A stretch of DNA of 64,000 bases. Source: Escherichia coli. GTDB taxonomy: Bacteria > Pseudomonadota > Gammaproteobacteria > Enterobacterales > Enterobacteriaceae. The stretch's first letter is position 1. Every line of letters begins with the position of its first letter. The notes beneath the pieces were generated by a model. It searched no databases. It worked only from the letters and a program-made list of their open reading frames with translations, and was not told the origin of the DNA. A program made the translations under genes and the position numbers. Positions 6,153 to 13,378 of this stretch are shown here, in pieces. Where the stretch lies: NCBI RefSeq assembly GCF_029227855.1, contig NZ_CP074356.1, one strand, 5' to 3'.

Positions 6153-6827
6153 TCACCTGTATAACCAGTACGCGGTGCTTTCTACATTTGCACCACTTTG
6201 TATGTATCGTTTAAGCGCGGCGGTGTTGCCCATTTGGGTCGCCACCCGCAAAGTTGTTTTACCGCGAGCATACGCCCAGTTTAGCGCCGTTTGCATCAGC
6301 TCAGCACCTGCACCGCGTCCAGCCAGCAGGCCAATTCGCGCATCTGTCGCATTGAGTTCCCGTAAAGAGACATAGCCGCGAATATCGCCGGACGCCGCAC
6401 GTAAAATCAGACATTGATGATCAAAGGTGCCGCGCACGGCATTTTCAATCCACTGTGCATAAAAGCGTCTGCTGGCGTCAGGCGCATACCACGGCGCACG
6501 AAAACGGCTTTGCGCAAATGCGGCGCTGGCTAACTGACGTAATGCGGGAATATCGGTCTCTTGTGCCACTACAGCACCACTATCACTGACATTGTTCACG
6601 GGTAGTGCCAAATCAACTTCACCTTCTACCAGGGAGAATCCCAGCTGTTGCAGGGCATCCAGTTCACCCGTATTTGATGCCGCAATTTTGGCCTGCACCC
6701 GTGACCACGGCGCTAACACGTCTGGCGTCAGGAGCGGTGCTTCAGACGTAATGCACACGATGGCGCTGTTAACACCAAAGAAGGCGTTTTCCCAGGTTAG
6801 TGGCTCAATACTGGCGCGGACGGGCAC
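6153..6827 (-). CDS. wecD: dTDP-fucosamine acetyltransferase
   Basis: 224-codon ORF recognised as WecD/RffC; first codon in the ORF track is GTG (cac on plus strand at 6825-6827), overlapping rffH by 23 nt; exact start uncertain. Confidence 0.8.
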
Positions 6828-7686
6828 GAAGTAACTCCAGCAGATATTGGCCGTAGCCAGTTTTCGCTAATGAACTGGCAGCACGCTTCACACCCTCGTC
6901 ATCGAGCCAGCCGTTACGCCAGGCGATCTCTTCCAGGCAGGCAATCTTAAAGCCCTGGCGTTTTTCTACTGTCTGCACAAAGGTACTGGCTTCAATCAGG
7001 CTGTCGTGAGTGCCAGTGTCCAGCCAGGCAAATCCGCGCCCGAGCAGTTCAACGGTCAGGTTGCCCGCCTCGAGGTACATCTGGTTGATGGAGGTAATCT
7101 CCAGTTCACCACGCTCCGACGGCTTCACCTGCTTTGCGTACTCCACGACTTTACTGTCGTAGAAATAAAGCCCGGTCACCGCCCAGTTTGACTTCGGCTG
7201 TTTTGGCTTTTCTTCCAGCGAGATAGCGCGGAAATTGTCGTCAAACTCCACCACGCCAAAGCGTTCCGGGTCCATCACCTGATAGCCAAATACCGTCGCC
7301 CCTTCCGTGCGCGCCGCAACATGACGCAGCTTCGGACTGAAGCCCTGACCGAAGAAGATGTTATCGCCCAGCACCAGACAAGAAGGTTCACCGTTGAGGA
7401 AGGTTTCACCGATGATAAAGGCCTGCGCCAGACCGTCCGGGCTGGGCTGTTCGGCGTATTCCAGCTGGATACCGAACTCACTACCATCGCCCAGCAGGCG
7501 CTGGAAATAACCTTTATCTTCCGGCGTAGTGATGATGAGAATTTCGCGGATACCGGCCAACATCAGCACCGACAGCGGATAGTAAATCATTGGCTTATCG
7601 TAAATCGGCAACAGTTGCTTCGATACGCCGCGCGTAATCGGATGCAATCGGGTGCCGGAACCGCCCGCCAGGATAATACCTTTCAT
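6805..7686 (-). CDS. rffH: Glucose-1-phosphate thymidylyltransferase 2
   Basis: 293-aa ORF beginning [18 protein letters not shown], recognised as RffH. Confidence 0.94.
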
Positions 7687-7704
7687 GTTTGCCTCCGCTG
7701 AAAA

Positions 7705-8772
7705 TTAGCCTTTCAGACCTAAACGCTCGCCCTGATAGCTGCCGTCCTGCACCTGCTTCCACCAGCTTTCATTAGCCAGATACCACTGCACCGTTTTACG
7801 CATTCCACTTTCAAAGGTTTCCTGTGGCAGCCAACCAAGTTCACGGGCAATTTTCGAAGCATCAATGGCATAACGCAGATCATGCCCCGGACGGTCAGCG
7901 ACAAAGGTGATCAAGTCACGATAGTGCGCCACGCCGTGCGGCTTGTTCGGAGCCAGTTCTTCCAGCAGCTCGCAAATGGTTTCCACAACATCGAGATTCT
8001 TACGCTCGTTGTGACCACCAATATTATAGGTTTCACCGACTTTCCCGGTGGTCGCCACGCAATACAGCGCGCGGGCGTGATCTTCCACATACAGCCAGTC
8101 ACGGATTTGCTGCCCGTTGCCATATACCGGCAGCGGTTTACCCGCCAGCGCGTTGAGGATCATCAGCGGGATCAGTTTTTCCGGAAAGTGGTAAGGACCG
8201 TAGTTATTCGAGCAGTTGGTGATCAGCGTCGGCAGACCGTAGGTCCGCAGCCAGGCGCGCACCAGATGGTCGCTACTGGCTTTTGACGCGGAATAAGGGC
8301 TGCTCGGCGCATACGGCGTGGTTTCGGTGAAGAAATCATCCGTCGAGTGCAGGTCACCATATACTTCGTCGGTGGAGATATGATGAAAACGGAACGCTGA
8401 TTTTTTATCTTCCGTCAGCGTATTCCAGTAAGCCCGCGCCGCTTCAAGCAATGTATAAGTCCCGACAATGTTGGTTTCAATAAACGCTGCCGGGCCGTCA
8501 ATAGAACGGTCAACATGGCTTTCGGCTGCCAGATGCATGACACAGTCTGGCTGATGCTCAGTGAATACGCGTGCCAGTTCTGCCCGATCGCAGATATCAA
8601 CTTTCTCAAAGGCAAAGTGCTCGCTTTGCGCGACCGGTGCCAGCGACATCAGGTTTCCGGCGTAGGTCAGCTTATCGACCACTACCACCGCATCGCTCGT
8701 TTCGTTGATGATATAACGCACCAGCGCCGAGCCAATAAACCCGGCACCACCTGTTATCAGAATTTTTCTCAT
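7705..8772 (-). CDS. rffG: dTDP-glucose 4,6-dehydratase 2
   Basis: 355-aa ORF beginning [20 protein letters not shown], recognised as RffG. Confidence 0.94.
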
Positions 8773-11216: not shown

Positions 11217-12263
11217 CTATTTCGAGCAACGGCGGGTTAATGCGACACCAGCCCCGATCAGCCCCCCGACAATGCCCCACATAATCATCAGGAAGGCACG
11301 ACGTGGGCTATCGCGTTTTACCGGTTCTTCCGGCGTACGCAAATAGCGATAGGTCTGAAAACGCGGATCCAGAGTTGGACCAACATTCAGGGTGTTTAAC
11401 ATGGCCCGATTCTGATCATAGTCGAGATCAAAGGCCGGACCGACGGCCTGTAAATTTTCCAGTCGAGCCTGGAGCATTGGACGCCCAAGCAGGAACATTT
11501 CTGAATCAGGTAATTCCTCGGCAGGCACATCTGTCGCACTGCGCGAAATATTATGCTGCTCAGCAATTTTCAGCGCCTGCTCAATGCTGTTCATCCGGCG
11601 GTCGTAGATGGCTTTCGCCACCTCTTCCTGACGCTTCACCTGAGCTTTCATCTGGATGGTGCGTGCCGCCCATGCGCCTTTCAGCTCATCATTCAGATGG
11701 CTGGCTGCACGCTGGCTGGCAAAAGCAACATACTGACGTAACAGGTTATTAGCGTCAGGCGCGGTTTCGGCAATAAGCTTCACGCTGTCATTGACCGCGC
11801 GAGTAAAGTCTCCGGGGATAAACTGGATGTTGTTAATCATTTCATCCAGCAACGCCGCATCGGCTTTGCTGTTGCCCACCATCCGCTGCTTGTAATAGTC
11901 GGTTTGCAGCCAGAACTCTCTGCGGGTATCCCACGAGGCCAGTTGCATAACAAACTCTTTATAGGCTTCGTCCATGACCGATGGTTGGTCGGCAGAAGCC
12001 ATGTTTGAACGGGCATCCAGGTTACGCAAAAATTGCTGCTGCGAGTAATATCCCCCCAGCATATTCACCGTTGGACGATCGGTAATCGCCGTCGCGCTCC
12101 ACTCTTGTCGAGCAAAAAAAGTATACGCCAGCGCGATTAACGCAAACGCCAGCCCCATGCCAATAATCCATAGCTTCCCAGCCCACAAGGTACGAAACAA
12201 CCCACGAATATCCAGTTCATTTTCAGCGTCTTCGGCCGGTTTCCCAGGCATTGGTTGTGTCAT
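11217..12263 (-). CDS. wzzE: ECA polysaccharide chain-length regulator
   Basis: ORF recognised as WzzE; ATG at 12261-12263 gives [16 protein letters not shown] (348 aa); the ORF-track start one codon upstream is GTG. Confidence 0.9.
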
Positions 12264-12274
12264 CACATCCTCAT

Positions 12275-13378
12275 TTATTTGGTTAAATTGGGGCTGCCAC
12301 CACGATTTCTACGCAGTCTGCGTTTTACGCGCTTAATAAAGCGAGCAACTTTCCAGGCACGCTTAATGCAATATCCATAGAGGAAGAATGCTAGCAAAAA
12401 GAGCACCAGCATGACCCACTCCGGGACAAAATGAGAATATTCTGCCAGCACGCCAATGGAAGCGAGCAGTGCTGCGGCAAGGGTAATCAGCACAAACGCC
12501 TGACGGGAAGTAAACCCGGCACGCATGATCAAATGGTGAATATGCTGACGGTCAGGAGAGAATGGGCTCATGCCTTTACGCAGGCGACGGTACATAATCG
12601 CCACCATATCCATTAGCGGAATGGCGATTATCCACAAAGCGGTAACCGGGCTGATGGGATGGGTTTTGCCCTGGGTCGTTTCGAGCAGGATCCAGATAAC
12701 GGTAAAACCAATCAGCGTACTGCCCGCATCACCCATAAAGACTTTGTAGCGGCGACCCAGGATACCAAGGTTAAGCATGATGTATGGCAGGATGGCGGCG
12801 ATCATCGCAAAGCACCAGATTGCGAGGCTGGTTTGCCCGTCGAACCACAAAATCATACCGATTGCTGCAAACGAGACGCAGGACAACCCGCCCAGCAAGC
12901 CATCAATGCCATCAACCATGTTGAACGCATTAATGGCCGCCCAGACGGCAAATAGCGTCAGGAAGTAACCAAACGGTCCGAGCACCATCTCCCAGGAGCC
13001 AAAGATATAACCCAGGCTACTGAGATAAAGTTTGCCGAACACCATCATAACAATGCCAACAGCGGCCTGTATGGTGGCACGGATTTTTACGCTGATATCA
13101 AAACGGTCATCCAGCGCGCCAATGAAAACAAGCACACCGGCACAAGCGAGATAGAGAGATGCATGCGGAATATAGTAATCGACAATTCCGAACGTGAAGC
13201 AAATCCCTGCGTAAACCGAAATCCCCCCAACGAGAGGTATCAATCCCTGGTGACGTTTGCGGAAGTTTGGTTTATCCACTAAACCGACTTTTTTTGCCAC
13301 TTTACGGGCAAAAAACAGAAACAGTGTCGTGAATAAAAAAATACTGATGAGATCAGTACTCACTGTCAGTAAATTCAC
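12275..13378 (-). CDS. wecA: UDP-GlcNAc:undecaprenyl-phosphate GlcNAc-1-phosphate transferase
   Basis: 367-aa polytopic ORF recognised as WecA/Rfe; GTG start (cac at 13376-13378). Confidence 0.93.
   Translation of the reverse strand: MNLLTVSTDLISIFLFTTLFLFFARKVAKKVGLVDKPNFRKRHQGLIPLVGGISVYAGICFTFGIVDYYIPHASLYLACAGVLVFIGALDDRFDISVKIRATIQAAVGIVMMVFGKLYLSSLGYIFGSWEMVLGPFGYFLTLFAVWAAINAFNMVDGIDGLLGGLSCVSFAAIGMILWFDGQTSLAIWCFAMIAAILPYIMLNLGILGRRYKVFMGDAGSTLIGFTVIWILLETTQGKTHPISPVTALWIIAIPLMDMVAIMYRRLRKGMSPFSPDRQHIHHLIMRAGFTSRQAFVLITLAAALLASIGVLAEYSHFVPEWVMLVLFLLAFFLYGYCIKRAWKVARFIKRVKRRLRRNRGGSPNLTK

Follow-up and report, generated by a model that had tools for sequence, protein, structure and literature searches.

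Among the closest described relatives of the junction reported here are the classic translationally coupled gene pairs of the NTGA type, with a stop/start spacing of -4, and the TGATG type, with a spacing of -1, in which two co-directional genes follow each other and the initiation region of the second lies inside the first (PMC6728339, PMC10666635, PMC12548453). A review of such pairs indicated that only spacings of -4, -1 and -8 are enriched, and that in over 80% of overlapping pairs the overlap is shorter than 30 bp (PMC12548453). Overlaps of more than 60 bp between co-directional genes are essentially absent, according to a preprint (10.1101/724807). As to how same-strand overlaps arise, Fonseca et al. 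favoured 3' elongation of the upstream gene (PMC3887535).

We examined a junction of the enterobacterial common antigen (wec/rff) cluster in a window of 64,000 nucleotides of Escherichia coli DNA, the whole stretch analysed. The corresponding protein of K-12, WecD/RffC (RefSeq; PDB 2FS5 and 2FT0), is the product of the same gene, with the same GTG start, the same 23-nt overlap with rffH and an identical junction. A 1.6-kb region of the window has a match of 95-99.9% identity in 5,425 of the 5,426 complete E. coli genomes, and in 5,089 of the 5,425 the identity across the 80-nt junction is at least 99%. A sequence-only reading of the window had remarked that the longest wecD frame begins at a GTG 23 nt inside the 3' end of rffH, and had proposed that wecD either starts internally or is coupled to rffH in an unusual way. 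We conclude with high confidence that wecD is translated from this GUG (6827-6825) by means of the GGAG at 6838-6835, giving an enzyme of 224 amino acids, and that the overlap is genuine and ancient.

Both genes lie on the minus strand. rffH (rmlA2; rfbA in the PGAP naming) occupies 6805-7686 and encodes 293 amino acids, from an ATG start to a TGA stop at 6807-6805. Its product, glucose-1-phosphate thymidylyltransferase, is identical to PDB 1MC3 over residues 1-293 and scores 534 bits against NCBIfam TIGR01207 (rmlA). wecD (rffC), the gene for dTDP-fucosamine acetyltransferase, occupies 6153-6827 and encodes 224 amino acids from a GTG start, both in the list of open reading frames and in RefSeq. 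The two frames thus share the 23 nt at 6805-6827, as the coordinates and RefSeq confirm, and the RefSeq/PGAP annotation of E. coli genomes carries the identical overlap.

Within this dual-coding segment (6805-6827, minus strand), RffH reads codons 287-293 and its stop (R-A-R-P-R-Q-Y-stop), and WecD reads codons 1-7 and two bases of codon 8 (fM-P-V-R-A-S-I-E), with the second position of wecD falling on the third position of rffH. The wecD start codon (GTG, 6825-6827, minus strand) is embedded in RffH Arg287-Ala288 (C-GTG-CC), 20 nt upstream of the rffH stop. Seven nucleotides before it lies a Shine-Dalgarno (SD) sequence, GGAG (6835-6838, minus strand), written by RffH Leu283-Glu284 (CTG GAG). 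A sequence scan placed the nearest upstream stop in the wecD frame, a TAG, at 6867-6869 on the minus strand, 42 nt before the GTG. Since no ATG, GTG or TTG intervenes between the two, the GTG is the first canonical start of wecD; the first ATG in this frame appears only at residue 178.

The wec/rff cluster runs along the minus strand of the window, with wecD upstream of wecE (rffA), a position that it also holds in all related loci examined. Taken from the RefSeq coordinates, the spacings at the cluster's ten remaining junctions are +11, +55, -4, -1, +18, +4, +1, -4, -4 and +2 nt. The earlier statement that most of them are overlaps of 1 to 4 nt therefore needs correction, since only four of the ten are of this kind and six are short gaps. 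The -23 junction of rffH and wecD is nonetheless the outlier. In the same cluster, the longest frame of wzzE (window 11217-12266; 349 aa) begins at a GTG, one codon upstream of where RefSeq places the start (position 12294 of locus L090, which equals window 12263; 348 aa), and the annotated gap between wecA and wzzE is accordingly 11 nt, not 8 nt.

The DNA comparison covered 80 Enterobacteriaceae species, being the best 80 of 216 matches, and nine more distant contigs; the distant lineages were reached via representative proteins and their contigs, and one such protein, P0131, was not located on any contig examined. An exact 23-nt overlap was found in 48 related loci, 44 of them species-level representatives and four distant (L083, L086, L088 and L094), in which the overlap is kept at 43-52% WecD identity. 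We take L088 (CP006569.1) to be Sodalis praecaptivus. Statistics on the overlap refer to 47 loci (species-level representatives and distant contigs) with 46 distinct sequences, L094, the 48th locus, being left out; nucleotide identity of rffH among the 47 ranges from 67 to 98%, with a median of 81%. Two records deserve separate mention. L066 (CACSKA010000013.1), titled Chryseobacterium sp. 18061, contains an Enterobacteriaceae-type wec cluster with the 23-nt overlap and is probably a mislabelled or contaminated assembly. In L008 (Citrobacter koseri NCTC10786), the rffH frame has an unrelated tail and stops some 86 nt ahead of the start of wecD, and the DNA downstream of this early end still matches the 3' end of rffH (about 90 nt before position 2501 of the locus); the rffH of this record is either a frameshift pseudogene or the result of an assembly indel.

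Comparison of WecD N-termini across Enterobacteriaceae, which had been suggested as a way to find the conserved start, singles out GTG or ATG at codon 1. The codon is GTG in 44 of the 47 overlap loci and ATG in the other three, and L094 also has ATG. This is not the pattern of a spurious start, in which neither the start nor the extension is conserved: codon 1 is a start in 47/47 overlap loci, and where rffH is missing the start falls on the aligned codon or, in a few lineages, at most three codons away. RffH ends in the overlap loci as ...LLRARPRQY or ...LLHVRPRQY, followed by the stop. The prevalence of GTG in Enterobacteriaceae follows from the fact that the first base of the start codon is also the second base of RffH Arg287 (CGT); distant lineages with His287 (CAT) therefore have ATG as the wecD start. 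In a more distant locus, L093 (1440-1545; WecD 43% identical), the rffH stop has been lost, RffH extends to 296 aa with the tail ...HVRPRQYDPT, and the overlap with wecD is enlarged to 32 nt.

In the 47 rffH genes, the third base is invariant in only 11 of 293 codon columns, of which three are Met and four are Trp. The remaining four are codon 283, whose third base G is the first G of the GGAG (window 6838); codon 287, whose T is the middle base of the wecD start codon (6826); codon 291, whose C is the second base of WecD Ala5; and codon 293, whose T doubles as the second base of WecD Ile7. These columns are all found among the last 11 codons of rffH, an arrangement with a hypergeometric chance of about 1e-6. 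By way of background, none of the 23 rffH columns with an invariant Leu has an invariant third base, against 47/47 for the G of codon 283, and codon 291 is the only one of 78 fourfold-degenerate columns with an invariant wobble base, the mean wobble entropy being 1.40 bits. The sequences compared share ancestry, a problem that the synonymous-site test avoids because the columns compared evolve on the same tree.

The periodicity of variation changes at the start and again where rffH ends. In the stretch upstream of the GTG, the 46 distinct sequences vary with a period of three that follows the rffH frame alone. Inside the overlap, all third positions of wecD, which are first positions of rffH, are invariant, and the wobble sites of rffH are partly or fully frozen. 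The entropy of wecD third positions rises from 0 bits in the overlap to 1.7 bits at codon 8, right after the rffH stop; this is the first wecD codon with its third base outside rffH, and the wecD-frame pattern continues from there. The WecD residues that vary within the overlap are 2, 3, 4 and 6, with mainly P/L/H/R, V/A, R/H/L and S/N respectively, and almost all of these substitutions leave the RffH sequence unaltered. The change at residue 2 also turns RffH Ala288 into Val in 4 of the 46 distinct sequences, and a change of the rffH stop from TGA to TAA produces E8K or E8N in WecD in K. grimontii and two other species. These patterns show that RffH and WecD both constrain the 23-nt segment, which is nearly frozen because both reading frames are under purifying selection.

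The C-terminal tail of RffH appears to be under selection in its own right, because the first positions of rffH are invariant even though they are wobble sites of wecD. The hexapeptide ARPRQY (residues 288-293; window 6808-6825) is nearly invariant across Enterobacteriaceae, and is replaced by VRPRQY in more distant lineages and in one Raoultella. Alignments of the RmlA family end at RffH residue 287, beyond which the paralogs have 2-4 further residues against six in RffH. This tail beyond the end of the RmlA alignment is consistent with 3' elongation of rffH, the route by which the overlap may have arisen.

The presence of rffG-rffH (window 6805-8772) is polymorphic: the pair is missing from 117 of 5,426 complete E. 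coli genomes and from many Enterobacteriaceae species (loci L089, 2930-3050, and L006, L013, L017, L018, L025, L027, L028, L033-L036, L040, L047, L055-L057, L063, L065, L068-L072 and L075-L082). Strains of this kind presumably rely on the rmlA and rmlB genes of the O-antigen cluster. Where rffG-rffH is not in the cluster, wecD directly follows wecC (tail ...DTKGVWR, then the stop) or rffG, and its start is again the aligned codon or, in a few lineages that are mostly Enterobacter and Lelliottia, lies no more than three codons away. The junctions that result are of several kinds: an overlap with the stop of wecC that reads GTGA or TTGA, in 14 loci and, on inspection, in E. cloacae; a TGATG in three loci; and gaps of 4-196 nt before wecD in 19 loci, 12 with ATG and 7 with GTG. 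In the 117 E. coli genomes, wecC is followed by 40 nt, with a GAGGGAG placed 7 nt before the start, and then by ATG CCC GTC CGC GCC AGT ATT GAG; the WecD N-terminus of these genomes is identical, with an ATG at the position of the window's GTG.

Remnants of rffH were also seen. Among the loci with a gap, a relic of the rffH 3' end precedes wecD in L033 and L035 (in both about 78 nt before position 2501), in L041 and in L084 (2440-2500). It reads ...GGCTATGGCCAATA...CTGGAT/GGAG...GTG and still supplies the SD and start of wecD, and L084 retains a 48-aa fragment of rffG as well. In L028, L036, L040 and L057 the relic has decayed and the start is now ATG.

Comparison among related loci thus establishes the position of the wecD start and its SD, and shows that the overlap is doubly constrained and ancient. 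As to the signal itself, the predicted duplex with the anti-SD at codon 1 (-5.9 kcal/mol) is the best among the candidate starts, the values for codons 24, 37 and 44 being -2.8, +0.7 and -2.2 kcal/mol. In 8 of the 46 distinct overlap sequences (for example in Klebsiella) the SD has the weaker form GGAT, and it is therefore not strictly required. RNA structure was considered as a further element and rejected: the minimum free energy of the region from -60 to +50 was no better than that of shuffled sequences (z = -0.32), which gives no indication of a masked wecD start, and a consensus fold of 15 diverse sequences across the junction reached -6.7 kcal/mol with a covariation term of -0.17, giving no indication of a conserved fold.

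We conclude that the GGAG inside RffH codons Leu283-Glu284, with its 7-nt spacer, directs initiation of wecD at the GUG. Ribosomes that finish rffH would probably feed wecD, either by a short-range shift of about 20 nt back onto the SD-GUG or by preventing the site from folding, because the footprints of a terminating and an initiating ribosome 20 nt apart would overlap, as judged from footprint size. It is from these overlapping footprints that we infer the mode of coupling between rffH and wecD. Independent entry of 30 S subunits would also be possible, given the conserved SD. Thus, of the two proposals made from the sequence alone, the internal start is rejected on the conserved codon 1 and the frozen SD and start sites, and the overlap is genuine; nothing points to unusual coupling, which is neither supported nor needed with a normal GGAG, a 7-nt spacer and no conserved RNA structure.

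A stronger form of coupling would make wecD obligatorily dependent on ribosomes that terminate on the UGA of rffH and then step back by about 20 nt to the GUG, with no contribution from free 30 S subunits. We consider this possible but rather unlikely. Several observations are in line with it: weak starts are usual where wecD overlaps or abuts its upstream gene (GTG in 44/47 overlap loci; TTG or GTG at NTGA junctions), ATG is commoner where there is an intergenic gap (12/19), and the SD is degraded to GGAT in the 8/46 sequences mentioned above. Scanning models of reinitiation have also been reviewed (PMC12548453). However, the wobble G of the SD is invariant, the strength and spacing of the SD are normal, and the calculations just described give no inhibitory structure (z = -0.32; consensus fold -6.7 kcal/mol, no covariation). 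Moreover, the efficiency of coupling falls with growing distance between stop and start (PMC12548453), and the stop/start spacing of this junction is -23 nt, outside the -4 or -1 of coupled pairs. A literature search for published data on the translational dependence of wecD on rffH found none.

A more far-reaching proposal is that the junction is an order-wide, frozen dual-coding module, in which the RffH-specific ARPRQY, lacking a counterpart in the RmlA paralogs, has a function of its own, the fixed 20-nt spacing sets the ratio of RffH to WecD by way of ribosomes that step back once they have terminated, and lineages that lost rffGH had to rebuild an independent SD-ATG. This full proposal appears improbable to us. 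The double constraint and the rebuilt initiation sites are seen in the loci compared; a role of the spacing in RffH:WecD stoichiometry, which may be imagined, goes beyond the evidence.

The remaining alternatives concern the extent of the protein, for which WecD itself provides evidence. Residues 1-224 match positions 1-231 of the 232 positions of NCBIfam NF008212 with 354.5 bits against a cutoff of 219, and this full-length match, N-terminus included, identifies the product as a member of the WecD equivalog. The construct of PDB 2FS5/2FT0 consists of a tag and residues 2-224 and aligns to residues 2-224 of WecD. These structures are attributed to Hung et al. (2006) in articles that cite them (PMC4964394, PMC7439462). 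The crystallized construct shows that the 224-aa WecD folds, and is a statement about folding, not about the place of initiation in cells. A review described residues 3-69, together with 219-224, as an ordered N-terminal partial GNAT domain, with domain limits of 3-69 and 70-218 (PMC4964394). The WecD of the window is identical to the crystallized sequence in 221 of 224 residues, and its allele differs by R25C, A38V and G120R, none of which is at the junction.

The N-terminus is common to the homologues of Citrobacter, Salmonella, Klebsiella, Kluyvera and other genera. The overlap loci show conservation of L10, W12, E13, F16 and F17. When representatives at 50% identity were searched exhaustively, the full-length relatives, some with as little as 31% identity, began 9-11 residues before an invariant Trp, which corresponds to W12, and F17 was likewise invariant down to 31% identity. 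Both residues lie downstream of the overlap and yet upstream of all of the alternative starts, namely codons 24, 37 and 44. These three codons were tried as candidate starts and rejected. On the minus strand, codon 24 (6756-6758) is GTG in 16/47 loci and otherwise GTT, GTC, GTA or Leu; codon 37 (6719) is mostly Ala across the 47 loci; and codon 44 (6696-6698) is GTG in 30/47 loci and GTA in 12/47.

Two isoforms, a full-length WecD from the GTG at 6827 and a shorter product from an internal GTG, might be envisaged, since the window's strain has GTG at codons 24, 37 and 44 and since some E. coli genes have internal in-frame initiation, according to a Ribo-RET preprint (10.1101/520783). We find this very unlikely, for no internal start codon or SD is conserved and nothing supports a product from which the first strands of the N-terminal domain are missing. 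It is even harder to believe that an internal GTG (codon 24, 37 or 44) is the only true start, which would give about 201, 188 or 181 aa and make the overlap an artefact of choosing the longest frame. Such a start could draw on NCBIfam TIGR02382, which begins at residue 44, on one 202-aa NCBI entry (P0017) that begins at codon 24, and on the lack of ATG in the first 177 codons of wecD. However, codons 8-23 show coding-type variation and hold W12, F16 and F17; initiation at codon 24, 37 or 44 would remove the invariant W12 and F17; the SD matches of these codons are weak or absent; the N-terminal domain is ordered from residue 3 (PMC4964394); and strains without rffH place an SD and an ATG at codon 1. 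For direct data on WecD initiation or its N-terminus, we looked in the supplements of the TetRP (PMC4909307) and TRAINSPOTTER (PMC13245402) papers, which contain none on wecD, rffC, b3790 or P27832. A start further upstream, whether at an ATG at -27 (233-234 aa, MANIYWSCSV...) or, for E. coli, at some non-canonical codon, can practically be dismissed: gene callers did produce the 233-234-aa proteins P0048, P0089 and P0111, and the ATG is present in 19 of the 46 distinct sequences, but it arises from the free synonymous choice of TAC or TAT for RffH Tyr278 (27 C versus 19 T), E. coli has ACG at this place (window 6852-6854), the period-3 pattern upstream of codon 1 is that of rffH alone, and no extension exists where rffH is absent.

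With codon 1 as the start, the conflicting database records of WecD can be accounted for. The alignment of the older TIGR02382 (wecD_rffC, 191 positions) to WecD begins no earlier than residue 44, and this model seems to derive from an old 181-aa annotation that started at the codon-44 GTG; the newer NF008212 spans residues 1-224. Besides 224 aa, the versions in databases are 202 aa (P0017, from codon 24) and 233-234 aa (P0048, P0089, P0111), the latter because the change of Tyr278 from TAC to TAT creates the in-frame ATG at -27. The earlier remark that the wecD start is uncertain has its historical basis in the start of TIGR02382 and in these divergent lengths. For annotation, the 224-aa WecD and its 23-nt overlap with rffH can be regarded as settled and correct, and the 181-, 202- and 233/234-aa versions and the residue-44 start of TIGR02382 as legacy or gene-caller artefacts. 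The junction may also serve for teaching how the SD and start codon of a gene can be read from frozen synonymous sites in the gene upstream of it, and the deletion polymorphism of rffG-rffH is a natural experiment on the choice of a start site. The junction opens no new biological question, and the feature was already known, because RefSeq lists the gene, its product of 224 aa and the overlap, and the same form was crystallized.

Compared with known systems, the -23 junction is uncommon but ordinary. The same wec cluster has four junctions of the NTGA/TGATG type, and wecD itself, in loci without rffGH, uses GTGA or TTGA with wecC. Unlike those junctions, that of rffH and wecD places the start 20 nt upstream of the stop, with the consequence that seven codons are read in two frames. 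At 23 nt, the overlap fits the same-strand class shorter than 30 bp, and the RffH tail, which reaches 2-4 residues beyond those of the RmlA paralogs and is elongated further in L093, agrees with the proposed route of 3' elongation. It is unusually stable, being retained where WecD identity is as low as 43%. Mispredicted long overlaps that result from wrong start calls were described by Palleja et al. (2008; PMC2478687), and the same worry, a longest-frame start reaching into the upstream gene, applies to wecD; the overlap of rffH and wecD is not a misprediction of this kind, because its start is conserved and supported by the synonymous-site constraint.
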